Shown here piece by piece: positions 43,130 to 64,000 of a stretch of 64,000 nucleotides of DNA (positions within the stretch are counted from its first letter, which is position 1; each line of letters opens with the position of its first letter). A model generated the notes under the pieces. That model was not told the origin of the DNA. It did not search any database and saw only the letters and a program-made list of their open reading frames with translations. Source of the DNA: an uncultured virus (IMG/VR IMGVR_UViG_3300043436_000696) (Duplodnaviria > Heunggongvirae > Uroviricota > Caudoviricetes); the IMG/VR virus record IMGVR_UViG_3300043436_000696; one strand, 5' to 3'. The position numbers were made by a program, and so were the translations under genes.

Positions 43130-44503
43130 ATGGCAAGTTATATCCCAAATATTACAGACGTTTTTCCAGAGCCGGTGCTCTACAGTCCTGATTTTAACAG
43201 GATTGAAAGAATGCTGCAGCAAAGAGAAGGTATGTACAAACAAGGAGCTCAACGAGTTAAAAACTTGTATGAGTCAGTTTTTAATTCCAGTATGCTAAGA
43301 GATGATAACATCCAAAGAAGGGATGCTTATCTTAAAGCAATTGACCAAGGACTTAAGACTGTCTCAGCTCTTGATCTATCTCTTCCTCAAAATCAAGAGT
43401 TAGCTACTAAACTATTTGAACCTGTTACAACAGATCAAAGTATTGTAAAAGATATTCAGTTTACTAAGCAGTATCAAAGTGAAGCATCTAGAGCTGAGCA
43501 ATTAAGATCTTCTCAAGATCCTGCTACTAGAAAACAGTATTGGGATGTTGGTATGAAAGCTCTTCAATATCAAGCTGAGGAATTTAAAAATGCTGATAGC
43601 AATACTGCTTTAGGTATGAGTAGTCCTAGATATACACCTAATGTGGATTTATTTGAATTATCACAAAAGATGTATAAAGATTCTGGTATTAGTATAAGTC
43701 AGGATAGTGTAACTGGTGGTTATATAGTTACTCAAAAGAATGGGGAGAATGCTATGCCTCTTACTCAGACTATGGTTAACATGATGTTTGACCAAGATCC
43801 AGCTATTAAGTCTATGATTCAAACTCAGGCTTATGTTACTAGAAAAGATGCAATCCAAGCTAAAGCTCCTAAGTATAATGGTAATTTAGCATTGGCAGAA
43901 AAAGAGTATCTTAATGAGGTTATTACAAATATAGCATCTAAACAAAATGCTCAATTAGATATAGATACTGCATCTTTAAAAATAGCAAGAGAAAAGGTTG
44001 ATAAATGGAATAGTGTTATTACTAGTAAAGGTATTGTTCCAGGAAGTAAAGAACATAATGATTATTTAGCAGCAGTAACTAATTTAGATATGCTTGAAAA
44101 AACTGTAACATATACAAGAAATAATGTGTTACAGATGAAAAGTATTGATAAAAACAATGTAGCTGATTTAAGAACAGCAACTGATGGTGCTATAACTTCT
44201 ATTTTATATGAGAATCTTACAGGAAAACTTTCTCAATTCTTAGCATACAAAGATGCTAGTACTAAGATAAAAGCTGATCCTTTTGCGTTAGCCTCTCATA
44301 ATTCTGGTTTATCTTTGAATAGAGCTATGGTAATGGAAGGCATTAGACAGTCTAATAGAATTAAAACATTAGAGAAAAGAAAAGAGTTGGGACTCGGTAG
44401 TGGCGGTTCTGGTAAAACTGGACCTATTGTATTAGATGCAAATGGAAAATCAAGTGGTGTTATAAATCCACAAGATATAATAGACGGACTAAAAAACGAT
44501 TAA
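43130..44503 (+). CDS. Helical virion cargo (ejection) protein
   Basis: 457 aa, predominantly helical; position in the cargo block. Confidence 0.55.
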   Translation: MASYIPNITDVFPEPVLYSPDFNRIERMLQQREGMYKQGAQRVKNLYESVFNSSMLRDDNIQRRDAYLKAIDQGLKTVSALDLSLPQNQELATKLFEPVTTDQSIVKDIQFTKQYQSEASRAEQLRSSQDPATRKQYWDVGMKALQYQAEEFKNADSNTALGMSSPRYTPNVDLFELSQKMYKDSGISISQDSVTGGYIVTQKNGENAMPLTQTMVNMMFDQDPAIKSMIQTQAYVTRKDAIQAKAPKYNGNLALAEKEYLNEVITNIASKQNAQLDIDTASLKIAREKVDKWNSVITSKGIVPGSKEHNDYLAAVTNLDMLEKTVTYTRNNVLQMKSIDKNNVADLRTATDGAITSILYENLTGKLSQFLAYKDASTKIKADPFALASHNSGLSLNRAMVMEGIRQSNRIKTLEKRKELGLGSGGSGKTGPIVLDANGKSSGVINPQDIIDGLKND

Positions 44504-46379: not shown

Positions 46380-49300
46380 ATGGCAGTATTAGAAAATAAT
46401 AACTTAGGAATGTCTAGTTCTGAAGATCAAGCTGTCATGCAAAATGAAGTGGATCAATCTTTAGACTTATCTACAGTAGATAGTCCTATTGATCCTTTAA
46501 ACGATGTTAACTTAGATGTTGTACAACCTCAAGTTGATAGTCCAACTCAAGTTAGTCCCCCACCTAATACTCAAGATCCTCCTACTAAAAATAAAGTATT
46601 AAGTACTCAAGAACTTCAAGCTCTATCACAAAAGCAGAAAAAACGTAATAAAGAGTGGGCTGAAACTGGAGCAATGGCTTCTGTAACATCTTATGTAGAT
46701 CCTAACCAAGCTGCTAGAGTTGTATCATTTGATTCTAAAACTACAAGATTAGATAGGTATTTAGCATATGGAGATAAGACGTTTAATAAAGTAGGGTTTA
46801 GTCCATTTGCTAATAATGAAGAAGCATTTAATAAAAGTGTTTCTATATGGCAAGATTATAAAAGAATGGCAACTGTTGCTCCTTCTTTAATGTCATTGGG
46901 CTTTAAACAAAGTTTTGGATTTGGAGTATTTGATTGGAATACTGAAGATGAAAATGCTAGAAAGTATAAAGAACTTAATGATATTGGAATGTCTAGTAGA
47001 GGTGGTCCTGGGGCATTCGTTAATAATTTAGTTCTTAATGGTAGTTATGGTATTGGTGTTGGGTATAGTATATTAGCAGAAGAACTTTTAATGATGGGTG
47101 CTGAAGCTCTTACATTTGGTGGAGCAACTCCATTAGTAGCTGCTCGTACAGCTCAAAATTTAACCAAGCTTGGTAAGCTTCGTGCTATGTTTACAACTGC
47201 TGCAAACAGTGGTTTTAAAAGTGTTCAAGTTGCAAATGCTGGACTTGATGTGTTTAAATCTTTAAAGAGTGCTGATAGAGCTAAAGACTTTTATACATCT
47301 ATTAAAACGTTTGGTAAAGCTACAGGTAACTTTCTTAACCCACTAGCTAGAGTTACAGATGAAGTAATTGCTGGAAGTAATACTGTTAGAAATCTTAGTA
47401 ACATGGCTAAGATATCTAAAGGGTTTGGTGCGTTTTACAGAGATGTCAGAGATGTTAATATAGCTCTTGGTGAATCTAAATTAGAAGGAAGTAGTAAGAA
47501 GCAAGAAGTTATTGATAAAGAAATTGAGGACTATAAGAAAGCCAATGGTAAACTTCCTGAAGGAAAAGATCTAGAACAAATATATGCTAAAGCCGAAGAT
47601 GTACGTAATGGTGTAGTTGCACTTAACTTACCAATTATATATTATACTAACCGTATTACATTTGATGGTTTATTTAAATTTAGAGGTTTTAAAACTTTAG
47701 AAGAAGCTGGTAAAACTGCAAATCTTTCTAGCAAAGGAATTAAATTTACTGCTGGAACTGGTTTTAGTGTAGATGCCGCTAAAAAATGGTATCAACTTAG
47801 TATCAGAAAGTATCCAGGTATGGCTTGGAACTATGCTAAACGTAATGCATCAGAAGGTCTTCAAGAAAACTTTCAAAATGTAATCTCTGATGGTGTTGGT
47901 GAATACTATGATGCTGTTTATAAAGATCCTACATTAGGAGGATTTAACTTTGCTGTAGCTACAGCAGGTACTAATATTAAAAAAGAATTTACTTCTGGTC
48001 GTGGACTAGAAACTTTCTTTACAGGTTTCTTAATGGGATCTGTAGCAGGTCCTGCTCAAAGTGTATTTCTTACAGAAACTCCTGGCCTTTATTATAAAGG
48101 TAAAGATTTTGTAATGCGTACTAATGACTTTAAAGCTTATAAAGCTAAGAAAGCTGAGCAGATTAAAGAAAAGGTTGCTACACTTAATGAATTGTACAAA
48201 AACCCATTAGATTTTTTTAGTTCTATTCAAGAGAATGCTGCTTCACAAAATGCTGCATATACTACATTAATGCAGGCTGAAGATAATGGAGATGCTAAAA
48301 CATTTCAGGATACTAAAGATATTAGTTTATTTAATCATGTATTTACATCTATTAATAATGGAACCTTTGATGATCTTATTAATGGATATAAAGAAATGTC
48401 TAAGCTAGATCCTAAAGAGTTAGCAGACTATCTTAAAATACAAGATGTAAGTAAAGCTAAAGATAAGATTCAAGAGGTTATAAAAAGAGCGGAAGAGATT
48501 CAATCTACGTATAATAAAGTTAATTCTAAGTTTGAAAATCCATTTAATCCTTCTCAATATAAACCTGGAGACGTAGAGCATGAAAGAGAGGCTATTGCTT
48601 ATGTAGCTTTTGAAAGAGCTAAAAGAAGTTTAGCAATGGCTGAGCATGGGTTTCAACGTAGTTTAGAAAGGATGCAGAGTTTATACCAAGACATCTCTAC
48701 AAATCGTCCTATAGAAAAGTCTAATAATGCAGACTATAGCGTATTGTTAAATGCTAAATCTATTAAAGATGAAATATACACTCTTAAGAAAGAGATTGCG
48801 TCATATGGTCCTGAGTCTCAACAAGATAGAGATCAAAAGAAAATTGTTAAAGAAAAGACTCAGAAATTAGAAGATCTTCAAGAATATGCTGATAACCTTG
48901 ATACACATTTAGAATCTATTAAGAAACAGGAAAGTATTCAAAATGGTGAATTTGTAATTCAACCTATTGCAGAGTCATATAATTCTTTAAGAGAAAGCTA
49001 TAGAAAGTATTTAAAAAATATAGCTAAGCTTTCTGGAGATTATGCGTTTGATAGTAAAATTGATGATTCATTTGATAAACTTGCCGATTACTATTCTTTA
49101 GATAATGACTCTAAAAATCTTAGCAATGCTATTAATACATTGTTAGATCCTACTAATCTATATACTCATGCTGAAACTATTAATGATAAACTCATTAAGA
49201 TCTTTACTGACAAAGAAAGAAGTTTTGAAGAGCAGATGGAAAGCTATACTAGATATAGTGAAATGAATACTCTAATAGAAGAGTTGGCTAAAGCTGGGGT

Positions 49301-50819
49301 TGTTATGGATCAGGATGACTTTATAGAGTATATTAAGACTGGTAAACGTCCTAGTAAATTTTTAGATAAGGATACAGGAAAGCCTGTAGATCCAGATTCT
49401 CAGAAACAAAAAGATGCTAAGGAAGCATTTGATGTAGATGATCAGATTAAGAATAGACCAGCTCCAACAATGCCTAATGATGCACCTACTCCTGGGGCCC
49501 CTGTTACAACTCCGGTAACACCTACAGAAGCAGAACCATCTATAGAAGATCAAGTAGAGACTGCCGGAGCATCAGAATTAGATCAAGCTTTACGTAAAGC
49601 ATATGGTGAGTACTTATCTAATAATCCTGATGCTGATGTTACATATGAAGAGTTTGTAACTCAATCTCCTAAAGCTTCTCAGATTAAAAAGGACTTTGCT
49701 AAAAAAGCAGCTGAGCCAGTTGCTGTTGAACCAGTAGAAGAAGTTCCAGCTGAGCCTACTACTGTAGCAGAAACTCCAGTTGTAAAAGAAGAAGTTGCAG
49801 AAGCCGTTCCTGTAATAGACTTAAATGCAGAATTAGAAAAACAGTTTACAGAAGAAAGAGATCAAAAGCTTTCAGATTTAATGCCTCTCTACGGTACGGC
49901 TAGAAAGACTATGATGCAACTAGGGGATGAGGCTTTAGATCTAGGAGACCGTAATATTTTAGCAGATCCTGTTAAGTATTTAGAAGGTCGCATTGCACAA
50001 GGGGAATATAGTTTACAGCAAAGTATAGATAAGTTAAAAACACTTGATACTAATAATCCTGATAATGCTAAGGAAGTTAAAAACTTACAACGTTATATTG
50101 ATACAGAAAAAATTGTTTTAGGAAAGACATATCCTAAACTTGAACAGATAAAAGCTGTAGTAGCTGAGTATAATGATAAGATGAGTAGAATAGGAGAAGC
50201 TCCTATTACTGCTCAAACAGCTTCTTCTACAACAGAAAAAACTGGTGTTCAAACAGTTCAGGATCTAATAAATTCCGTATCTTCTATTAGGGACTTGCCT
50301 AATCTTAACTCTAGTGTAGCAAATACGGTTACTACTAAGATTATAAGTCTTATGAGAGATAACCCAGGAATTAAAGCTTCTGATGTTACTGCTATGATAG
50401 AAGCTAAACGTAAAGAATTTATAGAAAATCTTAACACTTCTGATCTAAAACCAGGAGATATTGTTACCTTTACAGACGGTAAAAAAGGTATGGTTAAGAA
50501 GTCATCTAATACCGAAGTAAGTATTAAGCTTCCTAGATCTAATGACGTCTTAGTATTATCTAAAGAAGACCTATCTAAAAGAGTAACTATGGTAGAAGCA
50601 GGATCAGTAGCTAAGGCTAAAGTACAACCTCCAGTAGAAATTGCTGAGAATGACAAGAAAGAAGTAGAAGCGTCTAGAGATGCGGTAGATAGTTTTACAT
50701 CTAATGCAGCTAAAGTACAAGAACTAAATAAAGATATATTAGCCAATACAGGTAAAGATAACAGTGCTAATATGAATAACTTAATTGACAAACTTGGTTG
50801 TAAGACCAACGCTAAATAA
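46380..50819 (+). CDS. Large ejection/cargo protein with putative membrane-inserting helices
   Basis: 1479 aa; Gly/Ala hydrophobic segments (GIGVGYSILAEELLMMGAEALTFGG; FFTGFLMGSVAG), SEGLQE motif, long coiled region, Pro/Glu linker, SH3/KOW-like LKPGDIVTFTDGKKGMV near the C-terminus. Confidence 0.6.
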   Translation: MAVLENNNLGMSSSEDQAVMQNEVDQSLDLSTVDSPIDPLNDVNLDVVQPQVDSPTQVSPPPNTQDPPTKNKVLSTQELQALSQKQKKRNKEWAETGAMASVTSYVDPNQAARVVSFDSKTTRLDRYLAYGDKTFNKVGFSPFANNEEAFNKSVSIWQDYKRMATVAPSLMSLGFKQSFGFGVFDWNTEDENARKYKELNDIGMSSRGGPGAFVNNLVLNGSYGIGVGYSILAEELLMMGAEALTFGGATPLVAARTAQNLTKLGKLRAMFTTAANSGFKSVQVANAGLDVFKSLKSADRAKDFYTSIKTFGKATGNFLNPLARVTDEVIAGSNTVRNLSNMAKISKGFGAFYRDVRDVNIALGESKLEGSSKKQEVIDKEIEDYKKANGKLPEGKDLEQIYAKAEDVRNGVVALNLPIIYYTNRITFDGLFKFRGFKTLEEAGKTANLSSKGIKFTAGTGFSVDAAKKWYQLSIRKYPGMAWNYAKRNASEGLQENFQNVISDGVGEYYDAVYKDPTLGGFNFAVATAGTNIKKEFTSGRGLETFFTGFLMGSVAGPAQSVFLTETPGLYYKGKDFVMRTNDFKAYKAKKAEQIKEKVATLNELYKNPLDFFSSIQENAASQNAAYTTLMQAEDNGDAKTFQDTKDISLFNHVFTSINNGTFDDLINGYKEMSKLDPKELADYLKIQDVSKAKDKIQEVIKRAEEIQSTYNKVNSKFENPFNPSQYKPGDVEHEREAIAYVAFERAKRSLAMAEHGFQRSLERMQSLYQDISTNRPIEKSNNADYSVLLNAKSIKDEIYTLKKEIASYGPESQQDRDQKKIVKEKTQKLEDLQEYADNLDTHLESIKKQESIQNGEFVIQPIAESYNSLRESYRKYLKNIAKLSGDYAFDSKIDDSFDKLADYYSLDNDSKNLSNAINTLLDPTNLYTHAETINDKLIKIFTDKERSFEEQMESYTRYSEMNTLIEELAKAGVVMDQDDFIEYIKTGKRPSKFLDKDTGKPVDPDSQKQKDAKEAFDVDDQIKNRPAPTMPNDAPTPGAPVTTPVTPTEAEPSIEDQVETAGASELDQALRKAYGEYLSNNPDADVTYEEFVTQSPKASQIKKDFAKKAAEPVAVEPVEEVPAEPTTVAETPVVKEEVAEAVPVIDLNAELEKQFTEERDQKLSDLMPLYGTARKTMMQLGDEALDLGDRNILADPVKYLEGRIAQGEYSLQQSIDKLKTLDTNNPDNAKEVKNLQRYIDTEKIVLGKTYPKLEQIKAVVAEYNDKMSRIGEAPITAQTASSTTEKTGVQTVQDLINSVSSIRDLPNLNSSVANTVTTKIISLMRDNPGIKASDVTAMIEAKRKEFIENLNTSDLKPGDIVTFTDGKKGMVKKSSNTEVSIKLPRSNDVLVLSKEDLSKRVTMVEAGSVAKAKVQPPVEIAENDKKEVEASRDAVDSFTSNAAKVQELNKDILANTGKDNSANMNNLIDKLGCKTNAK

Positions 50820-50824
50820 TAATT

Positions 50825-53800
50825 ATGGCTTGTAGATTATCAGATGAACAGGTTGAAGCGTTATACTCAACAGTACTTGGAGATATTGTTTCAACTAAGA
50901 ATAGAGGTGATATATATGATCCTAGCACTGCTATGCGTACATTGTACCAAAGCTTAATGGCAGCTGGTGCTGATCAAACTAATGCTCTTGATTATATCCA
51001 ACATGTACCTAGAATGATTAATGCTGCCTATGGTAGCTTAGAAGAAATTGCTGATTATTTACAAGATAGTAATGTAAGTATTGATAATCTTAACAAGATG
51101 AGAAGAGACTTTAAAGACATTAATAATGTCATGTCTTTTCTTAATTTAAATAATAATACTGTAGAGATTATAGAAGAAATTGTAGAAGAGAGTAATCCTT
51201 CTACTCCTGTAGTTCCTACAGATGTATACACTGAGATTGAAAACTCAGATGTTGAAGAGAAACAAAAGTTATATAAGAATCGTTCTTTTATAGCTGCTCC
51301 TGAAACAGCATTAGCTGTATTTAATCAAGAGGCTAAAGATTACGATGGATCTATTGCTGAGGATAATGTTCAAGATCCTGATCCTAAGAAGAAAACTTAC
51401 TATGCTGTAGTTAGAAAGATCAATGCTTTAATGAACTCATTAAATGCTAGTACTGCTAACAATCTTAAGATGGGTACTACAACTGGTATCTTTATGAACT
51501 TAGTAAAAGCATCATCTATTGATGAGGCTGACTTATATGTTTCAGACACAAAATTTATTAACCAGAGTGAAGAAAACAGAGCATATCATAATGATTCTGC
51601 TTTGGCACTCGTATATACAGATAAAAATGGTAAAGTATTATATTTTGATGAAGAAGGTAATATCACAAGTAAAGAAGCTGGCGGTAAACTTGTTTACGGT
51701 AAAATAAGAAATGTTTACTCTGATAAAACTGGAGCTAAATATGTACCTAGAGTACAGACTGTAGAGAGAAAGGCTGAGAAAGGAATGGGAACTCAAGAAG
51801 AGTTACAAGCTGAAAGACAAAAAGAAATTGATGTTTTAGAAGGTGCTCGTAAGTTTCTTAAAGAAAATCCTACAGGATCTTTAATGTTTTCTATTACTCC
51901 TGGTAGAAATGGATATGTTAATGAGGACTTTAGTACAGTTAATCTTATTGGATCTATAGAATTACCTGATGGATTTAAGCCTACAGTGGCTAAAGAAGAT
52001 ACTGGTATTTACAAGTCAGGTGGTGTATACTTTCATGTTCCTGGGTACAGTCTTCCTATCCTTGTTCGTAGACCTAAGTTTGGTCAATTGAATAATAACT
52101 TAGCTCAGAATTTAGCTGATTTATTATTTGATAGTGCTAATACACAATCTAATGCTGAAAAGATTGCTATAGTAAAACAGTTTACTTATAGTAATGATAC
52201 TAAAGTATTTGACCGTGATGGTAAAATATTTGTAAAGCAAGGTGAGCAAGAGTTGGACACTACAGATAGTAGTAACCGTGAGACTTTCTTACAGAATTTA
52301 AATGGGCAGGTAGTAAACATTAACAAGGATTTAGTTAATGGTTATGTAGATATGCCTGTTAACTTAGACGGTAAAGTACAGATTCAAAAAGAGATATACA
52401 ATAACTTTTTAACTGGAAACTTCTATACTCATCTAGCTAAAAATGCAGAGGGTAAAGTTGTAAGTATGAATGCTTATAACAACATCTTTCCTACAGTGGA
52501 GTCTCAGACTAAGATGTTTGGAGAAACTAAAACTACTAAGACAGTTCTTGCTGATGAACTTACTCCTATTGAACAAAACTTTTCAGATGGTCAAGGTGGA
52601 CGTAAGATGCAATCTAAGTTTGCAGGTAAATCTACTATGGATTTAATTCTTTCTGGAGATAGAACTAGAACTACACGTGCTAATACTGACATACAAAGAA
52701 TGATGAAAGACTATGGTCTTACTAAAATTGAAGACTTAGTTGGTAAGGTTATTCGTATGACAGATAAAAAAGGTAGAACTGCTTATACTGAAATTACAAA
52801 AGTTGTTCCTTTTACAAAAGAATATCAAGATTCTACTTGGCAAAAAGAAGGATGGGAAAAAGGAGTAACAGATAAATTAGTAGGACAATATCCTTACGCT
52901 ATAGAATTTAAAATAGTTAGTTTAGAAAAACAATATACAGCTCCTGTAAGTTTAACAGAAACTACTCCTACAGATAATAAGATTAGTCCTTTAGCTGAAT
53001 TGCTAAAGAATACTGACTTCTCTTTAAAGAAATCTATATTAGAGAATAGTGATGCTACAGAAGAGCAGATTGCTAAAGCTAGAGCTTGGTATACAGGTAG
53101 TCCATTAGCTAAGGTTGTTCCTTTTGAAACCATGTTCCATGTTGTGAACTCTAATGCATTAGCTACATTTACTTTATCTGGTATTACTTTATTTCAAGGA
53201 TCTAACTATACTGACCTATACCACGAGGGATGGCATGCTTTTTCTCAATTGTTCTTAACTAAAGGTGAAAAGGTTGCTTTATATAATGAAGCTAGAAAAC
53301 TTACAGGATCATTTAAAACTGCAGATGGTAGAACTATAAAGTTTAGTGCGGCTAGTGATATTCAATTAGAAGAGTTTTTAGCAGAAGATTTTCGTAAGTA
53401 CGGTTTAGCTGATGGTAACTATATAGTTGCTGGCAGAGGAACTCGTAATACGTTGTTTAGACGTATGTGGAATTTCTTAAAGGCTGTATTTAAAGGATAC
53501 AGTATTAAAGATGCTATTAGTGAAGCTACAGCTATTCCTAAGATAGCAGAGTTATACGATAAGCTTTATGTAGGAAACATTAATGACTATAGTGCTTCTT
53601 TAAACAATGTACAGTTTAAGATATTAAACAAAGGTGCTCAACCTTTAGATGATAAGAACATTGATGGTGGATTAAACTATCAAGACTCAATGACTCTTGT
53701 AGAGACAATTGACTCTTTAATGGCTTCTACTTTACAAGACTATGGAGTTAACCTTGGGGTGCTATTTACTAACCCAGAATTTACAGCTCCATTATATGCT

Positions 53801-56800
53801 GAGATTAAGAGTAAGATAGAAAAGATGGCAGCTAATCCAGATCTTTCTGAAAGCTCTAAAAGAATATTAAACTTTGCTTTAAGTGAGTGGGGTGACTATA
53901 CAGCTGTTAGCAAAGGAGAACAGGAGTTAGGTGTGATAGCTTTTCATAAGAAGAGATCTTCTTACTTAACCTTTGATGAAAAGTATGCAGATTTAACTGG
54001 TGCTGAACAAGACATTAATGAAAATGCAGCAGATGCAATTAAGGATGAAGAGGATCAATTAACTTTAACTGCTAATGAAGCTCGTGAAAGTTTTGGGTCT
54101 AATGCATTTGAACGTAAAGGTAATGAGTTATCAGTTAGAGAGTTAGCTAGTAACCAAACTGTATATTTAATTAAGAGCTTACCAGCTTTAGATAAGAATG
54201 GTAAGGTTGAAATGAATGCTTTAGGTGTTCCTAAATTGACTGACTTTAATAGAACTTGGGGTATTGTAATTAATACTGTACAAGGAGCTATTGATGAAGT
54301 AGATATGTATAGAAAGCTTTCTGAAGCTTCTACTAGATTCCCTGAATTAAAGGCTTTAGTTGAACGTTTAGGTGATCCTATGGAAAAGACTCAAACTTCA
54401 GATTGGCCTGCTATGAATATGTGGATTAATTTCCACCGTGACTTTAGTGTATACCGTGTGCCAATTAGAGAAGTACGTTTAGTTAAAACTCAAATTCCTG
54501 GTGAAGATGGGTATACTTTTAGTGTAGAGTTTACTGAAACTAGCCCTACGTTTAAACAAGTTGAGAATACATTTAAGTCTCAATTTGATGCTATAAGAAA
54601 TAACAAGTATGTAAGAAATACTCCTCAAGGTAATGAGTTAAATATAGAATCTATACTTAATGATTTTCCTAAGAGCACTCTTATGAGTGGTACATCTAAA
54701 CTTAACTCTGAGCAAGCTATTAAATTTTTAAGAGCTATCGGTTTGTATGTAACTGACAATCAAGCTATTAGAGAAAGTTTAAATGACAACTATACAGCAG
54801 TTACTTATTTACATTCTGCTTTATCTAGAATTAACTATTTTAATTCTTCTAAAGAGCCGGCAAGTAAAATTAAGATTAGTAGTCCAATTGACTTCTTGCG
54901 TAATGAATTAAAGAATGTAACTACTAAAGATAGTAAGGGTAACACTACACTTTTACATAAAGGAGAGTCATCTAATATTGAAAAGATTCTTAATATAGAA
55001 GGTACTAGCTCGGGTAAGTATAGTAATAACTCTGTAGAGAATGTTAATGGTGATTCTGTTTTTGATTTATCATTAAATAATACTATTACAAAACTGTTTG
55101 CAGAATTAAATGCTATTGGTAAAACATATGCTGATGTAATTAACAAGCCTCATATGGCTCACTTAAACTTCAGAAATAATCCAGCTGCTAAATATAGTAT
55201 TTGGTTAAATAGCTTGTTCCATATTCCTACAGGAAACTTTGATACAGCTAATATGAATCAAAGAAGAGTGGGTAAGACTAATGCTGAAACAGTTAGTATT
55301 GATATAGTCAACTTAGATGGTATTAAGGAAGTAGTTAGTAATGAAGCTCAAGCTCAGTTTAGAGTTAATGGTATCAAAACTACATCTGCTGACCCAGCTA
55401 CTAAGTTTGTAATGGATTTACATACCATGTTAATGAGAGGTGTGATTGAAGCACCTAGACATGCTTCTAAATCTACAGCATATGGTTACTCTGTATCTCT
55501 TCTTTCTACACCATTCAATGCTAAGTCTCGTCATTTATATATCAGTAGTGAATACTTTGCAGATGATGCTACAGCAAACAATGCTGCAGTAACTCTTCTT
55601 AAGCCAAAGATTGCTGCAGAGATGGAACGTATTGCTATGCTTAAGGCAGGCATGCTTCCTAACATTCCTGGTTTTAACGAGAGAGGATTGACATTTACAA
55701 TGTTTGATGATATTCTTTCTGATAGTTTAAAGAAAGACTTAATAGAGATGGCTAATGCTGATAACTCATTAGATCTTTTAGAAGATGCTGAATTATCAAA
55801 AAGAATCTCTAATGATATCTCTAGTTATATAAATAAGCTAACTCAAGAGAACCTTGATATATTTGGTGAAATGCCTTTTATATCTAAAGAGTTATTAAGA
55901 GGTGGTGCTAGAGGTTCTGCTAAAAGTATTACTAGTTTAATTGGACAGGGGTCTAATTTAACTGATGCTCAGCTTAAAGTGATTGCACTTAAATCATTCA
56001 CTGTCAACTCTTTAATCCATAATATGGAAAGTATGGCTATGGTCTATGGTGACTTAGCTATGTACAATCATAATAAAGAAGAGTTCCATAAGCGTAATGC
56101 TGCTATAGGATCTACTGGTAGAATCTTTGCTTCTGGTCAAGCTACTACTAACTTTGTTAATAATCTTGGAAGAGGTTATGCTAGAAAGATAGGAGCTACT
56201 CAAAGAACTTTTGATGGTACTATTAACTCAGTAGTATTTAAAGATAATAATGTTACATCGGTTTATTACGATGAATATCTTGATGCTCTTACTTCTAAAG
56301 GATATACTAAAGAGCAAGCGGCATCTATATTAAAACCTTACTCAGAAATGAATGAGGGAGATGCTCAAGGATGGGTAACTTTTGATGCCTATCGTATGTT
56401 CTCTATTTTAGAGGGGGCATGGTCTGAAAAACAAAATGATCTTTACAATAAGATTATTAATGAAGAAGTGGTTGACCCTGCAGAAATTAGTGAGTTCTTC
56501 CCAACTAAAAAGTTTCAGTATGCTGGTCCTGTTAAGAGTGATAAGTTACACTTACAGGCTTTCCATAAGTTTTCATTAGTTCCGTTAATCCCTAGTTTAA
56601 TTAAAGGGACTAATATGGAAGTAGTACATGATAACTTGGTTAAGCAACAAGTTGATTATGCTGTATTTGAATCTGGAAGTAAACTAGCTACTATTACTAA
56701 AAATGGTCAGTATGATGATCTTTATAGTAATAAAGAAGAGAGAACTACACAACCTTGGAATCAAGGTGATCCTGAGTATACTACTAACAAAGTGTTTATT

Positions 56801-59800
56801 CAGTATCTAAAAGATCAAGTGGATATTCAATCTACTTGGAAGAATAAAACTATATTCTCTACTCAGCTTAGAAAGTTGATTATCAATGACTTGTTCAAAC
56901 AAGGTATTGCTACATCTAAAGATTTTGAAAAATTAGTAACTGACTTTGAAGGATTACTAGATGATCTTCAGACTAAAAAGAAGAATGAGTTACTAGCAGA
57001 AGCCGGTTGGACACAAGACAAGAAAGGAAACTACACAGGTAGTGTAAAAAGCTTAATGGAGTTTGTTGAAAGAGAACTTGCTCGTCAAGAACTCCCTGAG
57101 CATGATATTGATTTTGTAAGAGAAAGCTCTGATATTAATAGTATTAAGAGAGACTTAAGCTTTAGTCTTAATGCTGAGAAGATTGAAAAGTTGTTAAACT
57201 CTATCGTTATTAAACGATTGGTTCGTCAGAAGATGAACGGAGAACAGTTAGTACAAGTTTCTGGAGCTGGCTTTGAGTCTACTACTAAGTTAACTAATCC
57301 TACAGAAGAAGACATTAAGAACTATCGTGGTACTAATGACTTACCTACTTATCGTCCTGGTAAAGGAAAGAATGGTAAGACTAGTGCAATGAAAGTTAAG
57401 ATTGCTATGAAAGGTGACTACTATAAGTTACTTGAACTTAAGCATACTGATGGAGAGAAGATTGGTACAAGAGAGCGTTTAAATGAAGTGCTTAAGAAAG
57501 ATGAGTGGTTAGATCAAAAAGATAACCGTAAGCTTATCACTATGGTAGGTGTACGTATTCCTGTACAAGGCTTGAACTCTATGGAGTTTATGGAAGTATA
57601 TGAATTCCTTCCTGAAGAAGCAGGGTCTATTGTTATACCTCCAGCTGAAATCGTGGCTAAATCTGGATCTGACTTTGACATTGACAAGTTAACTATATTC
57701 CAACCTAACTATTCTAAGAAGAGTAAAGAAGCTAAGTATAGTATAAATGATAATGTTAAGGGTACAGAAAACAAGATTATTGAAAAGATTCGTGAGATCT
57801 TAGAGCACCCTGATAACTTTGAAGCTCTTATCCGTCCAAACAATACTGATATTGTTAAAGGTGTAGCAGATGATTTAGCTAGCAAAGATATTCAAGGATA
57901 CAGTCCTTTAGCTAATAAGACTAAAGAAAAAGCATCTAAGATTAGTCCTACTCGTACTTTAGAACCTAGATACAATCTATATAAGCATGAGTCTAATAAC
58001 ATTGGTAAAAAGACTTTAGGTATTGGTGCCGTAGATAATGCTTACTCATCTATCTTTAAAAGAATAGGTGCTAGATTAGAAACACAGTATACTCACTATC
58101 CAATTGATTTTGCAACTGGTGAATATAAGAAAGATCCTAAAACAGGTAAGATTGTTAAGCAAATTCGTCCTATTAATATTAGAATGAAGCATAATTCAAT
58201 CACTGTAGATGGTAAACAATATATTTCTTTATCTGATATTAACACTGTAAGTGGTGAAAAGATCTCTGATTTAATCTCTCAGTTGATGAACGGATGGGTG
58301 GATATTGAGAAAGACGCTTGGATCTTTAATATTAATGGTAATAATGTGGCAGGTCCTGTATTATTGTTTATGCTTGAATCAGGTGTAGACTTTAAAACAG
58401 CAGCTCATTTTGTATCTCAGCCTTTAATTGTTGACTATATTAAAAAGAGAGCAGCATCTAATAGTCCTTTCTTTGAAGCAAGTGGTAAAGGTGAAAATAA
58501 AGGAAAAGGTCTTAATAAGTTTGAGATTAAAAAACAATTTATACTAGATAACTTTGAAGATGACTTACCTATTAATAAAAGTACAGGTGAACCTATTGTA
58601 AGTAATGATGGTATATATAAGATTATTAATAAATATAATGAAGGAGTAGAGTACACTAGTGATAACTTATTAGGAATGATTGAAAAGAAGGATACTACTT
58701 CTGATATGGCTAAAGCAGCTCTTCTTCATTTCTTTGAGTTAGAAGACCTGATGGGTCAATTAACTAATATTAAATTAAAGGTTAATTTAGATACTGCACC
58801 TTCTAAATCTTTATTTTCAGCTCAACAGAGAATAAATGAAATTGGTAAGTTAAATATTGTAGATGCTGTACCAGCTAATTTAGTTAAAAATATATTGTAT
58901 AACTCTCCTATTAAATCATTCTTTGTACAAGATTTCCAATTAAAACTTTGGGAACCATTGATGAAGCTTAGAGGAGATGCTAATATAAACAACTTCTTAA
59001 TAGATAAGATTGCTACTAAGTCATATACAAATTCCTTTGATGATGCTGAAAAGTATGTGGCGGCATTTAAAAATGACCTTCCTTTATATCTTTTACAGAA
59101 TTACCTAAAGGGAATTGATATTTCTAAAATTACAGAGTACAAAGGCTTGCTTATAGATAAAGCTATGCCTGTGCAGAATGTACAAATTAGAAATGGGGCT
59201 TATGTAAAAGACGGGGTAATGTATGTAGATATAGACCAAATAAAGTCTGACTTTGCAAGCATGGCCTATACAGATAAAGGAACTTATAAAGAAATAGGTC
59301 TTTCTACTCTTCCTGCTCAAGTATTTAAAATGGGTGAAGTAAATGCTAACTTTCAAGAGTACTCTCACTATGTATTAGAGCGTGAGTATTTAAGATCAAT
59401 TCTTCCAGTAAGACAAAATGAAAGTAGAGAAAGTTATGAAGATAGACTTAGGGATAGAGCTTTAGAAAGAACTTTTAACTTCCATAGCATGCTTAAATCT
59501 GACAATAGTATTGCAGATGAGTTCAATAGAATTAAAGCTAAATACCCAGAGTTAGAAAAAGACTACATGATCTTTGATGAATTAGGTTATACTCCAGGTA
59601 GCAAGTTTGATGTAAATAAACTTAAGACACTTAAGTTAAAATCAAGTAAGCTTGACACTGATATGGCTAATGTTCTTCATGAAAACCTTCAGAGACTTGC
59701 TGACCCAGCAACTATTAAAGTAGCTAATCCTGTGGCTAACGCTGAAATTTCTAAGTTCTTTAGTAGAATGATTATATCAGAATACTTAAGAGCTGGTATT

Positions 59801-60577
59801 AGTAAGACTAACGATAGTATTGCAATAATTCTTCCTTCTGAATCTTTAATGAAGCTTTTAGAAGAACCTATGTATGAGCTATCTAAAGAGGGGATGACAA
59901 CAGAGTTTTTAGAAAAGTATTCTCAAACCTTTGACAAAAACTGGGCTAAGTCTGCTACAGCTGTTCGTAATAGATTTAGAAACTATATACAGTCTAATAA
60001 ACCTACAATAGTAGAACCTATTACTGAAGCTACTGCGGTAACTCCTATATCTCCTTCTATAGCTACATTTAAGAATAAGTTTGCAAAGAGTGAGCTTGAT
60101 CCTATATTGAATGCTAATAAAAACACTATATTTGTATACCCTGTAAATGAAAAAGGTACAGGTGATAACGTAGCTAAAGTATACCAAGATTCTGGAAATA
60201 GTGCAGGTGTAGTATTGAAATCTGTAGGAAAGAATTGGACAGATGCAACTTATGATTCTAATGTTGGCTTTATAAACCAATCATTAGATGTAATTAGTGC
60301 TCATTTAAGCAATGGTTTCCAAGTAGCTTTTCCTGAGTTTGGATTACACTTGACTAAGAATAAAGAAGAATTTGTAGACTTTTTAAGTAAGTCTGCACCT
60401 AGAACCTTTGATCATTTAGCTACTGAGTTATATAAGAGATTTGGATATGTTCATCCTGGAGCTGAGCAAATGCTAGGCTTTAGAAAGGAATTCCAATCTA
60501 ATCAACCTATATCAGATCAAGAAATTGAGGCTGCTATTAATAAGAAAATTGAAGAATCTAAAAACTGTAATTCCTAA
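50825..60577 (+). CDS. Giant virion-packaged RNA polymerase (crAss-like double-psi beta-barrel RNAP) with accessory domains
   Basis: 3250 aa; GSDFDIDKL catalytic motif (57671..57685) preceded by GVRIPVQG; EGDAQGW and FHKFS motifs; HEGWH zincin motif (53222..53236); ASCH-like segment. Confidence 0.9.
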   Translation: MACRLSDEQVEALYSTVLGDIVSTKNRGDIYDPSTAMRTLYQSLMAAGADQTNALDYIQHVPRMINAAYGSLEEIADYLQDSNVSIDNLNKMRRDFKDINNVMSFLNLNNNTVEIIEEIVEESNPSTPVVPTDVYTEIENSDVEEKQKLYKNRSFIAAPETALAVFNQEAKDYDGSIAEDNVQDPDPKKKTYYAVVRKINALMNSLNASTANNLKMGTTTGIFMNLVKASSIDEADLYVSDTKFINQSEENRAYHNDSALALVYTDKNGKVLYFDEEGNITSKEAGGKLVYGKIRNVYSDKTGAKYVPRVQTVERKAEKGMGTQEELQAERQKEIDVLEGARKFLKENPTGSLMFSITPGRNGYVNEDFSTVNLIGSIELPDGFKPTVAKEDTGIYKSGGVYFHVPGYSLPILVRRPKFGQLNNNLAQNLADLLFDSANTQSNAEKIAIVKQFTYSNDTKVFDRDGKIFVKQGEQELDTTDSSNRETFLQNLNGQVVNINKDLVNGYVDMPVNLDGKVQIQKEIYNNFLTGNFYTHLAKNAEGKVVSMNAYNNIFPTVESQTKMFGETKTTKTVLADELTPIEQNFSDGQGGRKMQSKFAGKSTMDLILSGDRTRTTRANTDIQRMMKDYGLTKIEDLVGKVIRMTDKKGRTAYTEITKVVPFTKEYQDSTWQKEGWEKGVTDKLVGQYPYAIEFKIVSLEKQYTAPVSLTETTPTDNKISPLAELLKNTDFSLKKSILENSDATEEQIAKARAWYTGSPLAKVVPFETMFHVVNSNALATFTLSGITLFQGSNYTDLYHEGWHAFSQLFLTKGEKVALYNEARKLTGSFKTADGRTIKFSAASDIQLEEFLAEDFRKYGLADGNYIVAGRGTRNTLFRRMWNFLKAVFKGYSIKDAISEATAIPKIAELYDKLYVGNINDYSASLNNVQFKILNKGAQPLDDKNIDGGLNYQDSMTLVETIDSLMASTLQDYGVNLGVLFTNPEFTAPLYAEIKSKIEKMAANPDLSESSKRILNFALSEWGDYTAVSKGEQELGVIAFHKKRSSYLTFDEKYADLTGAEQDINENAADAIKDEEDQLTLTANEARESFGSNAFERKGNELSVRELASNQTVYLIKSLPALDKNGKVEMNALGVPKLTDFNRTWGIVINTVQGAIDEVDMYRKLSEASTRFPELKALVERLGDPMEKTQTSDWPAMNMWINFHRDFSVYRVPIREVRLVKTQIPGEDGYTFSVEFTETSPTFKQVENTFKSQFDAIRNNKYVRNTPQGNELNIESILNDFPKSTLMSGTSKLNSEQAIKFLRAIGLYVTDNQAIRESLNDNYTAVTYLHSALSRINYFNSSKEPASKIKISSPIDFLRNELKNVTTKDSKGNTTLLHKGESSNIEKILNIEGTSSGKYSNNSVENVNGDSVFDLSLNNTITKLFAELNAIGKTYADVINKPHMAHLNFRNNPAAKYSIWLNSLFHIPTGNFDTANMNQRRVGKTNAETVSIDIVNLDGIKEVVSNEAQAQFRVNGIKTTSADPATKFVMDLHTMLMRGVIEAPRHASKSTAYGYSVSLLSTPFNAKSRHLYISSEYFADDATANNAAVTLLKPKIAAEMERIAMLKAGMLPNIPGFNERGLTFTMFDDILSDSLKKDLIEMANADNSLDLLEDAELSKRISNDISSYINKLTQENLDIFGEMPFISKELLRGGARGSAKSITSLIGQGSNLTDAQLKVIALKSFTVNSLIHNMESMAMVYGDLAMYNHNKEEFHKRNAAIGSTGRIFASGQATTNFVNNLGRGYARKIGATQRTFDGTINSVVFKDNNVTSVYYDEYLDALTSKGYTKEQAASILKPYSEMNEGDAQGWVTFDAYRMFSILEGAWSEKQNDLYNKIINEEVVDPAEISEFFPTKKFQYAGPVKSDKLHLQAFHKFSLVPLIPSLIKGTNMEVVHDNLVKQQVDYAVFESGSKLATITKNGQYDDLYSNKEERTTQPWNQGDPEYTTNKVFIQYLKDQVDIQSTWKNKTIFSTQLRKLIINDLFKQGIATSKDFEKLVTDFEGLLDDLQTKKKNELLAEAGWTQDKKGNYTGSVKSLMEFVERELARQELPEHDIDFVRESSDINSIKRDLSFSLNAEKIEKLLNSIVIKRLVRQKMNGEQLVQVSGAGFESTTKLTNPTEEDIKNYRGTNDLPTYRPGKGKNGKTSAMKVKIAMKGDYYKLLELKHTDGEKIGTRERLNEVLKKDEWLDQKDNRKLITMVGVRIPVQGLNSMEFMEVYEFLPEEAGSIVIPPAEIVAKSGSDFDIDKLTIFQPNYSKKSKEAKYSINDNVKGTENKIIEKIREILEHPDNFEALIRPNNTDIVKGVADDLASKDIQGYSPLANKTKEKASKISPTRTLEPRYNLYKHESNNIGKKTLGIGAVDNAYSSIFKRIGARLETQYTHYPIDFATGEYKKDPKTGKIVKQIRPINIRMKHNSITVDGKQYISLSDINTVSGEKISDLISQLMNGWVDIEKDAWIFNINGNNVAGPVLLFMLESGVDFKTAAHFVSQPLIVDYIKKRAASNSPFFEASGKGENKGKGLNKFEIKKQFILDNFEDDLPINKSTGEPIVSNDGIYKIINKYNEGVEYTSDNLLGMIEKKDTTSDMAKAALLHFFELEDLMGQLTNIKLKVNLDTAPSKSLFSAQQRINEIGKLNIVDAVPANLVKNILYNSPIKSFFVQDFQLKLWEPLMKLRGDANINNFLIDKIATKSYTNSFDDAEKYVAAFKNDLPLYLLQNYLKGIDISKITEYKGLLIDKAMPVQNVQIRNGAYVKDGVMYVDIDQIKSDFASMAYTDKGTYKEIGLSTLPAQVFKMGEVNANFQEYSHYVLEREYLRSILPVRQNESRESYEDRLRDRALERTFNFHSMLKSDNSIADEFNRIKAKYPELEKDYMIFDELGYTPGSKFDVNKLKTLKLKSSKLDTDMANVLHENLQRLADPATIKVANPVANAEISKFFSRMIISEYLRAGISKTNDSIAIILPSESLMKLLEEPMYELSKEGMTTEFLEKYSQTFDKNWAKSATAVRNRFRNYIQSNKPTIVEPITEATAVTPISPSIATFKNKFAKSELDPILNANKNTIFVYPVNEKGTGDNVAKVYQDSGNSAGVVLKSVGKNWTDATYDSNVGFINQSLDVISAHLSNGFQVAFPEFGLHLTKNKEEFVDFLSKSAPRTFDHLATELYKRFGYVHPGAEQMLGFRKEFQSNQPISDQEIEAAINKKIEESKNCNS

Positions 60578-60580
60578 CAT

Positions 60581-63500
60581 ATGGCTTGTAGTATTATCCG
60601 TAATAAAGAAACTAATGAACTTGAACAAGTATTGGCTCCTAATGGTAAGGAGTCTTTACTATTTAATGGTATTTTAGATATTCAAGATGATCCTGAACAA
60701 TCTTTAAGACTATGGGCCCAAGTGTACACTGATACTTTTAAGAAAGAAAAAGGTGATTGGGAAACTCAAAAAGAGGGGTCAGGAATATTATTAGATGAAA
60801 ACGGTGAACCTCTTATACAGTATATCACTGGTTTAAATGAGGTAGCCCCTATAGATGTAGAAGATACTAGTGAGACTCCTAGTGTAGAAAGTCAAAAGAA
60901 GACTATTGGTAACACTGTTGCTGCTGAACTTGCATTTACAATATCCAATAACTTAAACATTCCTTATAGTCAAGTTTCTGCTGAACAGGCTCGTGAAATA
61001 ACAACAGCTGCTCAAAATCCATGGAATGGAGAGGCAGCCTTTTTCTTTGGGGGTAAAGTATACTTTGTAGAAGATGGCTTTACATCAGATAGTATACTAC
61101 ATGAATTCTCTCATCCTTTAGTAGCTGCAGTATTTACTCAGAACAAAGACTTATTTAATAAATTGTTCTCTGATCTATCAAACAGTGAGGAAGGCAAATC
61201 TATATTAGAGCAAGTTAAAGCTCTATATCCTGAGTTAGAAGAAGATAGTGCTCATTTCCAACAAGAGGTTCTTACTAGAGGTCTAGCTAAAGAAGCAGAA
61301 AATGAGACTAACCAGATTAAGAACTCTAAATCTTTTACAGACTTTATTAATAAAATGATCTTTGCTTTTAAACAAGCCTTACGTAAGATCTTTGGTAAAG
61401 ATGTTAAGATTGAAAAGCTTTCTACTAAGACTAATTTATCTGAGCTAGCTGATATGCTAAGAAATGATAAGTTTAATATTGATACTGAGATCTTTACTGA
61501 AGAAGACATGGTAGATTATCTACGTGATATTTCTAACTTTACTAAAGAATTAATGGCTGTTGAGCAAACTGAAATGGCTATGGCTTCTAAAAGATTCTAT
61601 AGTGTAGTAAGCAGTCAGATAAGGCGTATTAAAGAAAATGGTAACTACGCTGAAACTCGTAAATTTTTAATTGATGAAAATACAAAGCGTGGTAATCTTC
61701 AAGAAATTAAAGATACTCTTTCTAATGCTGATCTTGATAAATTACTAGATGATATGTATGAAGATGTACAAGCTCGTGAAAAAGCTGTACAAAGTTTTAT
61801 ACATGCTATGTTGCACTTAGATAAAACTATTAACAAGATTTATAATCACATACAAGAGCTATCTACTAAAGGTGACTCTCAAGATGTTATTAGAGATATA
61901 TTTTATTATGACTTGTTAATGAGAAACTGGAGCACTTTTATAGATGAAACTATAGATGGTTTAACTGATGCAGGACTTTCACCTAATACTGACTTTTCAA
62001 AATTAGCTGCAGGACTAAAATATAGTATTGATCAAAGCTCTAGAGCTATTAGTAAAATATATGCCAATGCTCTTGATGATGTAATGCTTGAGCATTTAAA
62101 ACCTTTAGCGGAAGAAATAGATAGATACTATTCAGATATTATCAAACAGCTTACTGATAAAAATCAAAAGCAATCAGAAATTGATAGAGTTCAAAAGAAG
62201 TGGGATGCTCATAGACTAACTAAAGAAAGAGTTAATGACTTACTTACTGGTAATGCCAAAGATACTAATATCTTTTCTTCTTTTCTTGAATCATATGCTA
62301 ATAGTCCTGATCCTATAATTGGAGGTTTTACTATGTTCTTGAAATCTGCATACAATGATGTGGATGCTGAAAGTCTTCGTTTAACTAATGAAATGGCTAT
62401 TGAACTTGCTCCTTTATTAGACGCAGTTGGTTATAGTAATACAGACTTTTCTAAAACAATGAAAGAGCTAGTTTATGAAGAAAATAAACCTTATGTAGAT
62501 CCAAAAGACGGTTTAATGAAAACTAGAAAAGTCTTTGCTTTTAAGTCTATGTTTAAAGATCATTTAGTACAACTAGGTAGTCTAAAACATGACTATAATG
62601 TAGCAATAGCATCTGGAGATCAAATTTTAGCTGATCAAAAACTTAAAGAAATTAGAGAACATAAGAAAGATTACTTTCATCAAGAGTATGTTAATGAATA
62701 TTATGATCGTGAACAGATATATAACTCGGAAGTAGGTAAAGAAGCTTATAGAAAAAAGTACGAGCTTTTAAATGAAATTAAAAATCTTACAGATCAAGAG
62801 TACGATCCTGATCATATTGATGAGATCTTAACCCAGAAAAAAATCTTATGGAGAAGATACTCTCAATTAGCTTCTTTAACAGATGAGAATGGTAATCCTA
62901 AAGTCGGCATTGATCTTGAGATAGCTCAGATAGAGCGTCAATATAGAAAAGAATCAAGAAAGTTTTTTGAATGGTTACCTACTAATAAGTTTGAGTCTAC
63001 ATTAAGAAGAATGGAACAGAATTTAGTAGATGAGGGAATATCACCAGACAGTCCAGAATTTAAACAAGCTAGAGATAAATGGATTAAAGAGAATACAGTT
63101 ATTGCTTATACTCCTCAATTTTTTGAAGAGAGAAATCAGATTATTTCTGATCTTAAAGACTTTATGGCTAAGTTGCCTAAAGCTACTCAAGACTTAGTAG
63201 ACTCATCTGGAGAGATGGAGAACATGTTAGATCTGTCTGTAGGATTTAGAGATCAAGATGGACAAATTATTGGAGGTGACTTTAGTCAAACTTCTAAAGA
63301 TAAAATTAAAGCTTATCAGAAATCTATACAAGATAAAAGAAAGAGCTTATATAATGGGCTTACAGATGATGAACAATCAGAACTTGATTCTCTATTTACT
63401 AGAAAAGATTTTGCAATAGGCAAAAGACTATCTCCAGAAGATGACGCTAGACTTAGTGAGTTAATTGATAAGGGTATTAGTCTTAGAATTAATGTTCTTC

Positions 63501-64000
63501 AAAAAGCGGAATTAGCTACTTTATACCAAAGACTTTCTGAGATTCAATCTAAAGAAGCTACTGATTACTATGCAGACATAGTTAATAACTATCTAGATCA
63601 GATGGGTGAAAAGCCTTTTGATGAGAACAATGAAAACAGTATAGATAGTCTATTAGATCCTAGTAACTATGTTAGATTGTTTAGTAAAAGCCCTGCGTTT
63701 GAAAAGTGGTTTAAAGATAACCATATTACTAAAGAAGTCTATGATAGAGATTCTGGTGAAGTTATAACTAAGTATGAGCGTTTATTTATATGGAACCGTA
63801 ACCGTCCTAATAATGAAGAACATTATGAGAAGATTACTCTTTCAGACGGTGAGCAGATTTTAGGTAAACCTAGCTTATCTTACTTTTTCCGTTCTGTTAA
63901 AAAAGAATATAGAACTAAAAAGGTAGTTGGAGAAACTGTAGATAACCGTGGCAACTTCTTACCTAAAACTATTGAGCAAGGTGCTAAAGATGATAAGTAC
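60581..64000 (+). CDS. Large polyvalent cargo protein with zincin-like motif (3'-truncated; not in ORF track)
   Basis: ATG 60581 MACSIIRN...LAPNGKESLL...VYTDTFKKEKGDW...LDENGEP; ILHEFSHP at 61100; frame spot-checked as open to the window end (about 1140 codons). Confidence 0.8.
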   Translation, partial: MACSIIRNKETNELEQVLAPNGKESLLFNGILDIQDDPEQSLRLWAQVYTDTFKKEKGDWETQKEGSGILLDENGEPLIQYITGLNEVAPIDVEDTSETPSVESQKKTIGNTVAAELAFTISNNLNIPYSQVSAEQAREITTAAQNPWNGEAAFFFGGKVYFVEDGFTSDSILHEFSHPLVAAVFTQNKDLFNKLFSDLSNSEEGKSILEQVKALYPELEEDSAHFQQEVLTRGLAKEAENETNQIKNSKSFTDFINKMIFAFKQALRKIFGKDVKIEKLSTKTNLSELADMLRNDKFNIDTEIFTEEDMVDYLRDISNFTKELMAVEQTEMAMASKRFYSVVSSQIRRIKENGNYAETRKFLIDENTKRGNLQEIKDTLSNADLDKLLDDMYEDVQAREKAVQSFIHAMLHLDKTINKIYNHIQELSTKGDSQDVIRDIFYYDLLMRNWSTFIDETIDGLTDAGLSPNTDFSKLAAGLKYSIDQSSRAISKIYANALDDVMLEHLKPLAEEIDRYYSDIIKQLTDKNQKQSEIDRVQKKWDAHRLTKERVNDLLTGNAKDTNIFSSFLESYANSPDPIIGGFTMFLKSAYNDVDAESLRLTNEMAIELAPLLDAVGYSNTDFSKTMKELVYEENKPYVDPKDGLMKTRKVFAFKSMFKDHLVQLGSLKHDYNVAIASGDQILADQKLKEIREHKKDYFHQEYVNEYYDREQIYNSEVGKEAYRKKYELLNEIKNLTDQEYDPDHIDEILTQKKILWRRYSQLASLTDENGNPKVGIDLEIAQIERQYRKESRKFFEWLPTNKFESTLRRMEQNLVDEGISPDSPEFKQARDKWIKENTVIAYTPQFFEERNQIISDLKDFMAKLPKATQDLVDSSGEMENMLDLSVGFRDQDGQIIGGDFSQTSKDKIKAYQKSIQDKRKSLYNGLTDDEQSELDSLFTRKDFAIGKRLSPEDDARLSELIDKGISLRINVLQKAELATLYQRLSEIQSKEATDYYADIVNNYLDQMGEKPFDENNENSIDSLLDPSNYVRLFSKSPAFEKWFKDNHITKEVYDRDSGEVITKYERLFIWNRNRPNNEEHYEKITLSDGEQILGKPSLSYFFRSVKKEYRTKKVVGETVDNRGNFLPKTIEQGAKDDKY

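Follow-up and report, generated by a model that had tools for sequence, protein, structure and literature searches.

Terminal cysteines of three giant genes

In this study, we examined a 64,000-nucleotide stretch of DNA (hereafter the window) from an uncultured virus of the Caudoviricetes (IMG/VR record IMGVR_UViG_3300043436_000696) and, within it, three consecutive giant genes whose products carry lone cysteines (Cys) at the protein ends that face one another. A preliminary description of the window had placed these Cys at 50799, 50831, 60566 and 60587, had seen by eye no other Cys in the proteins of 1479 and 3250 amino acids, and had proposed that the C-terminal Cys of one protein bonds to the N-terminal Cys of the next. 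Cys were counted in every open reading frame (ORF) of at least 150 amino acids in the window and the codons were read out; the positions proved exact, the counts held for both proteins, and all four codons are TGT (Table 1). After the arrangement proposed below, the three proteins are referred to as chain head, chain middle and chain tail.

The large ORFs around the three genes form a co-directional block on the plus strand, with gaps between stop codon and next ATG of 5 nucleotides at the first junction and 3 at the second. The Cys share of the remaining listed ORFs of the window is 0.71%, from which about 42 Cys would be expected in the 5869 residues of the three chain proteins; four were observed (probability of four or fewer, 8e-14). 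For four Cys placed at random, the probability that one falls in each of the 7-residue zones facing a junction is about 5e-11. The chain tail runs off the end of the window, and its gene is complete in two relatives (L016, 87% identical, 1821 amino acids; L017, 86%, 1813 amino acids). Cys3 is the sole Cys in both, and no plus-strand ORF of at least 100 amino acids follows the gene in either, making it the last gene of the block. Thus the head carries a Cys at its C-terminus only, the middle at both ends and the tail at its N-terminus only.

The preliminary description had called the middle protein a crAss-like RNA polymerase, rightly so: residues 1625-2335 match the virion RNA polymerase of phage phi14:2 (PDB 6VR4 chain A, E value 1.1e-24), and the protein contains a DFDID motif, in which, among 15 polymerase homologues, the Ile and all three Asp never vary and the Phe hardly does. 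DFDxD is named as the motif of crAss-like RNA polymerases in the accessible text of 10.1101/2020.03.07.982082. A tblastn search with the polymerase core gave matches in Crassvirales and in crAss-like phages of Flavobacterium and Cellulophaga only, at 21-43% identity. The other searches returned little: megablast of 49800-61600 against named phages gave no match, PHROGs held no family for the six proteins from 39150 onward, the chain head had no Pfam or PHROG family, and Pfam returned only sub-threshold matches to DUF7831 and VapB. The remaining genes of the window encode tail fibres and virion proteins, and the window covers the part of a divergent crAss-like phage genome that encodes its structural and cargo proteins. 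Presence of a crAss-like polymerase in virions by mass spectrometry is recorded for phi14:2 (record notes) and crAss001 (PMC10172136, in the part available) only.

Table 1. Coordinates of the chain proteins, their terminal Cys codons, the polymerase motifs and the neighboring cargo-block proteins in the window.
Feature	Position	Strand	Basis
Chain head, 1479 amino acids, single Cys1474, 5 residues from the C-terminus	46380..50819	+	Cys count
TGT codon of head Cys1474, C-terminus ...DKLGCKTNAK	50799..50801	+	Codon read-out
Chain middle, 3250-amino-acid virion RNA polymerase homologue, only Cys3 and Cys3248	50825..60577	+	Cys count; 6VR4 match
TGT codon of polymerase Cys3, N-terminus MACRLSDE	50831..50833	+	Codon read-out; invariant in polymerase alignment
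HEGWH, residues 800-804, zincin-like HExxH motif in the N-terminal part of the polymerase	53222..53236	+	Invariant in 15 homologues
DFDID, residues 2283-2287, catalytic metal-binding motif of crAss-like RNA polymerases	57671..57685	+	15-homologue alignment
TGT codon of polymerase Cys3248, C-terminus ...ESKNCNS	60566..60568	+	Codon read-out
Chain tail, third giant protein, open at window end, Cys3 the sole Cys in the 1140 amino acids visible	60581..64000	+	Cys count
TGT codon of tail-protein Cys3, N-terminus MACSIIRN	60587..60589	+	Codon read-out
Context cargo-block protein outside the chain, 457 amino acids, no Cys	43130..44503	+	Cys count; relatives' equivalent without terminal Cys
Context cargo-block protein outside the chain, 622 amino acids, no Cys	44508..46376	+	Cys count; relatives' equivalent without terminal Cys

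Elsewhere in the window, a plus-strand ORF of 167 amino acids (20705-21208) has its sole Cys as the very last residue (...ANVVDC) and may represent another terminal Cys in a protein of the virion region. The ORF that follows it (21233-22459, 408 amino acids) contains 20 Cys.

Conservation across junctions, fusions and splits

In a first round, 14 related IMG/VR loci had a junction in view, and all 14 carried Cys on both sides of it, some at about 25% identity. The set was then extended to 120 of 1568 polymerase homologues, 36-92% identical in the core. An N-terminal Cys (residues 3-6) is found in 114 of them and a C-terminal Cys (0-5 residues from the end) in 119; 96 have no internal Cys and 89 combine both terminal Cys with none internal. 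A profile-guided scan covered 80 loci of 293 IMG/VR matches, with 10-kilobase flanks. A junction was defined as two consecutive plus-strand ORFs of at least 250 amino acids, and Cys were scored in the last 13 residues of the upstream and the first 8 residues of the downstream protein. Among the resulting 251 junctions, 156 have Cys on both sides, 94 on neither and 1 is discordant (115, 79 and 1, respectively, after removal of identical junction pairs). The concordance corresponds to a Fisher p of 9e-55, a value that ignores shared ancestry and is an upper bound on the evidence.

The single discordant junction (locus L050) results from a frameshift of the polymerase in a poly-A run, and the true N-terminus reads MVNC. 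The frameshift lies in a run of about ten A near the polymerase 5′ end (about 9230-9420 of that locus), with the upstream frame reading MVNC as in the relative L051, and is either a sequencing error or slippage. In another locus (L076, 16546-16693) the polymerase is split into ORFs of 2181 and 1226 amino acids by a 147-nucleotide gap, and there is no Cys at this break, unlike at true protein junctions.

Many internal Cys, or a lack of conservation of the terminal ones in relatives, had been regarded in the preliminary description as speaking against a bond between the proteins. Neither was found: the terminal Cys are kept down to about 25-30% identity and across Crassvirales families, and the chain proteins of the 80 loci contain 60 internal Cys in 649,747 residues (0.009%). 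Head homologues in all 80 loci have a C-terminal Cys only. In an alignment of the last 150 residues of 39 head sequences, with a mean column identity of 22%, this Cys is the sole invariant column.

A trivial origin of the pattern, by chance, by composition or through a nucleotide signal at the junctions such as translational coupling, could be imagined, since many genes of the window start with Met-Ala and the two junctions are tight. Chance is contradicted by the placement and depletion probabilities given above. TGT (273) and TGC (42) both serve as terminal Cys codons in the 80 loci, and the distance of the Cys from the protein end is variable, with positions 3-6 on the N-terminal side and 0-7 residues following the Cys on the C-terminal side, which argues for selection on the protein and not on a nucleotide signal. 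Persistence of the pattern at 25-30% identity points the same way, as do the 94 other junctions of the same loci that lack Cys. In Kehishuvirus, including gp47 of crAss001, the head gene even lies on the opposite strand, not adjacent to the start of its partner, and keeps the C-terminal Cys. We therefore reject chance and translational coupling or another nucleotide signal, an origin of this kind having next to no probability in view of these counts.

Examination of 14 named records, model phages included, indicates that the Cys follow the protein breaks when genes are fused or split. In phi14:2, the sole Cys of gp078 is the last residue, gp077 has Cys3 and Cys2179, and gp076 has Cys3. In crAss001, gp47 has Cys2339 of 2341 residues, gp50 has Cys5, Cys1334 and Cys2404, and gp49 has Cys5; two further Kehishuvirus records resemble it. 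Head and polymerase are fused in Fpv1, cr118_1, cr55_1, cr108_1 and cr7_1, where one pair is left, at the polymerase-tail junction, and the fused gp33 of Fpv1 contains no internal Cys in 4401 amino acids. In Intestiviridae it is polymerase and tail that are fused, and the Cys pair is found at the head-polymerase junction.

The reverse situation is seen in four-member chains (L034, L047, L050-L052, L074, L075 and L080), in which a small extra protein with Cys at both ends stands between polymerase and tail. In L034 and L051, the C-terminal 110-170 residues of the extra protein share homology with the far C-terminal end of the L035 and L036 polymerases, which are longer, and the L034 protein also matches the C-terminus of the L070 polymerase. 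Where the module is fused (L035, L036, L070), the polymerase has its two terminal Cys only and none at the module boundary; where it is separate (L034, L051), it is flanked by a new Cys pair. The break points themselves have moved relative to the domains, since the zincin-like HExxH region lies in different chain members: residues 763-939 of the window polymerase are matched by a zincin region at the C-terminal end of the head protein in Kehishuvirus (L023), so that, unlike in Kehishuvirus, the region belongs here to the polymerase and not to the head. The Cys pair is still at the protein break in both.

That the same modules form one polypeptide in some lineages could also suggest that the separate proteins are joined by covalent ligation or trans-splicing, with the Cys as the nucleophiles. 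We consider this very improbable. Searches of the termini against Pfam found no intein (HINT) or other family (E value up to 0.01), and the halves of a split intein would not fit at termini where the Cys is followed by 0-7 residues or located at residues 3-6. In crAss001 virions, gp47, gp49 and gp50 were detected by mass spectrometry and are listed with separate masses (PMC10172136, accessible part). Intein-type splicing in particular was rejected for the window, where no HINT halves were detected and the Cys are 2-5 residues from the ends.

The polymerase gene of cr108_1 (L019, NC_055878) is interrupted inside its DFDID motif by a group I intron at positions 16000-16318 (Rfam RF00028, 80 bits, E value 8.8e-21), and the record annotates the two polymerase exons as separate proteins, gp054 and gp053. 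The giant cargo genes of cr273_1 (L110, 3059-26593) and cr7_1 (L111, 3533-19864) contain 12, 36 and 148 in-frame TAG codons and end with TAA, which fits TAG recoding in these late genes of Suoliviridae.

A proposed disulfide-linked chain

The best reading of these observations, and in our judgment a probable one, is that the injected cargo proteins form a head-to-tail disulfide chain. The pairing proposed in the preliminary description gains support from the concordance of 250 of the 251 junctions, from the way the Cys track gene fusion and fission, from a structural prediction of the first junction and from a disulfide in the cyanophage A4. For the prediction, the last 150 amino acids of the head were modelled together with the first 200 of the polymerase. 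The complex reached an ipSAE interface score of 0.83, against 0.23 for the best control, and the same mark is reached by 116 of 157 solved complexes and 2 of 215 mismatched pairs, benchmark counts that hold only roughly here because our own alignments were used for the model. Contact agreement between runs was at least 52% and the pLDDT of the partners at least 63. The modelled interface includes residues 142-146 of the head fragment, the Cys being residue 145, and residues 1-16 of the polymerase. This supports docking of the C-terminal tail of the head on the N-terminus of the polymerase. In A4 (Anabaena phage A-4L), cryo-electron microscopy of the pre-ejectosome showed that gp27 inserts its C-terminal helix into gp26, where a disulfide between Cys1715 and Cys5 holds it in place (PNAS 2025, PMC12002296, in the passages available), and in the A-4L record these are the only Cys of gp27 (1717 amino acids) and gp26 (1114 amino acids).

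Docking could also be purely non-covalent, with the Cys doing something else where the proteins meet, for example binding a shared metal or sensing redox state, and forming no stable disulfide. The docking was predicted without a disulfide term, and the particles are assembled in the reducing cytoplasm, both of which would fit such a role. A metal site is difficult to reconcile with one Cys per side, which is too few for a usual site, and with the absence of a second conserved ligand next to the sole invariant column of the head alignment. The identically placed pair of A4 is a disulfide, according to the same passages, and the near-complete loss of all other Cys from the chain proteins implies that additional thiols do damage during an oxidising passage. 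A non-covalent role thus appears unlikely.

Under the disulfide chain, the three consecutive genes would encode internal cargo proteins that are carried in the particle and injected, one of them being the virion RNA polymerase. As in other injected phage proteins, Cys has been purged from them, except for one at every end that adjoins a neighbor in gene order. Each protein would dock non-covalently, through its helical C-terminal tail, on the N-terminal domain of its successor, as in the model, and once the particle has left the reducing cytoplasm the two lone thiols could oxidise to an inter-protein disulfide. The result would be one unbranched thread from the head (1479 amino acids) through the polymerase (3250) to the tail (about 1820), about 6,550 residues in all. 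With overhangs of only 2-5 residues, each joint could fit through a narrow tail channel nearly as a peptide bond would. Such a link would keep the three proteins equimolar and in a fixed order during ejection, and its reduction in the host cytoplasm would free the polymerase. The Cys pair may be seen as a functional stand-in for the peptide bond by which the fused-gene lineages connect these modules.

A different topology of the bonds should be taken into account. The middle could be circularised from N- to C-terminus with the head bonded to the tail, the proteins could form homodimers, or the Cys could anchor them to a portal or ring protein. The Cys counts (head 1, middle 2, tail 1) fit a closed ring as well as a chain, and many inter-subunit disulfides are reported for crAss001 virion parts in the accessible text of PMC10172136. 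On the other side, extra middle members always carry both Cys and fusions lose exactly the junction-facing pair, which homodimers or external anchors do not predict. Fusions keep the same order of head, polymerase and tail; the predicted complex places the tail of the head on the polymerase N-terminus; and the published A4 joint connects an upstream C-terminus to a downstream N-terminus. We regard these other topologies as having a small, if real, share of the probability.

Several points weigh against the disulfide chain, beginning with the fact that the Cys counts taken alone would equally suit a middle closed on itself and a head bonded to the tail. The N-terminal Cys is missing from six of the 120 polymerase homologues and the C-terminal Cys from one, three of these seven being clearly shorter than the rest, and the junctions are not phylogenetically independent, so that the Fisher p of 9e-55 overstates the evidence. 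Proteins of Intestiviridae have 7-14 internal Cys, and in cr273_1 the protein continues for 49 residues beyond its last Cys. As annotated, cr110_1 and crAss002 also deviate, with the first Cys at residues 17 and 35, each after an internal Met-Ser. The annotated starts lie at 12157 of L106 (cr110_1 gp40) and 11286 of L021 (crAss002 gp33), with the internal Met-Ser-Cys at residues 15-17 and 33-35, respectively. Because this Met-Ser-Cys matches the MSC start of the p-crAssphage orthologue, both starts are probably set too far upstream. The complex model is a prediction and may draw on a solved look-alike such as A4. Assembly in the reducing cytoplasm and the anoxic gut habitat leave oxidation in nature, and its timing, open to doubt. 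For any crAss-like phage the disulfide, its topology and its function are what we infer.

Going further, it is conceivable, if speculative, that Crassvirales in general build a protein train of disulfide-coupled modules, with one Cys per end, that is pulled as a single thread (about 6,550 residues here) through the phage tail in order and is uncoupled in the reducing cytoplasm, possibly by phage-encoded thioredoxins, thereby switching on the RNA polymerase. Fusion and disulfide would then be interchangeable, and the same device would have arisen in podophages that are not related to them, A4 being an example. The records of cr108_1 (L019), p-crAssphage (L022) and cr8_1 (L107) annotate thioredoxin-like genes on the opposite strand, a few kilobases past the cargo block, and their products are candidate reductants of the proposed links once the cargo has been injected.

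Relation to known phage ejection systems

No phages of the human gut are more abundant than Crassvirales. An open question, in the accessible text of PMC10172136, is how fixed amounts of their megadalton cargo, RNA polymerase included, are packaged and how ordered injection is achieved; the paper leaves the ejection order of the crAss001 cargo open. One covalent thread, if true, offers a mechanism for both the order and the stoichiometry of the cargo, and the chain suggests a redox switch for release of the polymerase. The terminal-Cys rule, which follows every split or fusion of the genes, can be tested cheaply in the culturable models crAss001 and phi14:2. It could also serve in crAss-like genomes as an annotation marker for true gene starts, gene ends and chain membership.

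In the full-text literature searched, with subscription-only papers and supplements outside, we found no account of a terminal-Cys rule for Crassvirales, and for other phages only the A4 bond was found. The words cysteine and disulfide do not occur in the phi14:2 preprint (10.1101/2020.03.07.982082). The word cysteine is likewise absent from the accessible text of PMC10172136, where the passages on disulfides concern gp57, the tail hubs and the ring proteins. The A4 bond is a published precedent for one joint, and what is new here is the proposed serial chain that includes the virion polymerase and the rule across a whole phage order.

Within the crAss-like phages, the three-gene block and its fused variants were already known (10.1101/2020.03.07.982082 and PMC10172136, accessible parts). 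The middle protein of the window is like the crAss-like virion RNA polymerases exemplified by gp66 of phi14:2 (PDB 6VR4), sharing the 6VR4 match and the DFDID motif, and the window proteins obey the same terminal-Cys rule as those of phi14:2 and crAss001 (gp47, gp50, gp49). For crAss001, gp47, gp49 and gp50 have been found in the virion by mass spectrometry, and the virions contain several structural disulfides between subunits (both from the available part of PMC10172136).

The closest likeness in design is to A4, in which consecutive giant ejection proteins also carry a lone Cys at the upstream C-terminus and at the downstream N-terminus, and in which the upstream C-terminal helix enters the downstream protein with the same geometry as in the head-polymerase model. 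A phmmer search with A4 gp26, gp27 and gp28 against the window and phi14:2 proteins gave no match at E values up to 10. The likeness is therefore one of design and working, and not of shown descent. In A4 a single joint connects two proteins, the phage is a T7-like podophage whose core is pentameric, and no RNA polymerase is involved, whereas two joints in series are proposed here (one to three in the relatives examined) with the virion RNA polymerase as a link, and the crAss-like rule follows gene fusion and fission across a phage order. The passages of PMC12002296 on the A4 bond report it as a structural detail and describe no chain rule.

A second comparison is with the N4-like phages (Schitoviridae; DEV gp71, N4 gp50), which likewise inject a giant virion RNA polymerase into the host and suppress Cys strongly in it. 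Homologues of gp71 contain 0.00075% Cys against 0.865% in the proteomes, and the authors relate the Cys-free polymerases to passage through the periplasm (PMC11445570, accessible part). In the crAss-like chain proteins the suppression is comparable in kind, with the low internal share given above. Unlike the N4-like polymerase, which is one polypeptide without Cys, the cargo here is split into several proteins, and exactly the Cys that face the junctions between them have been kept.

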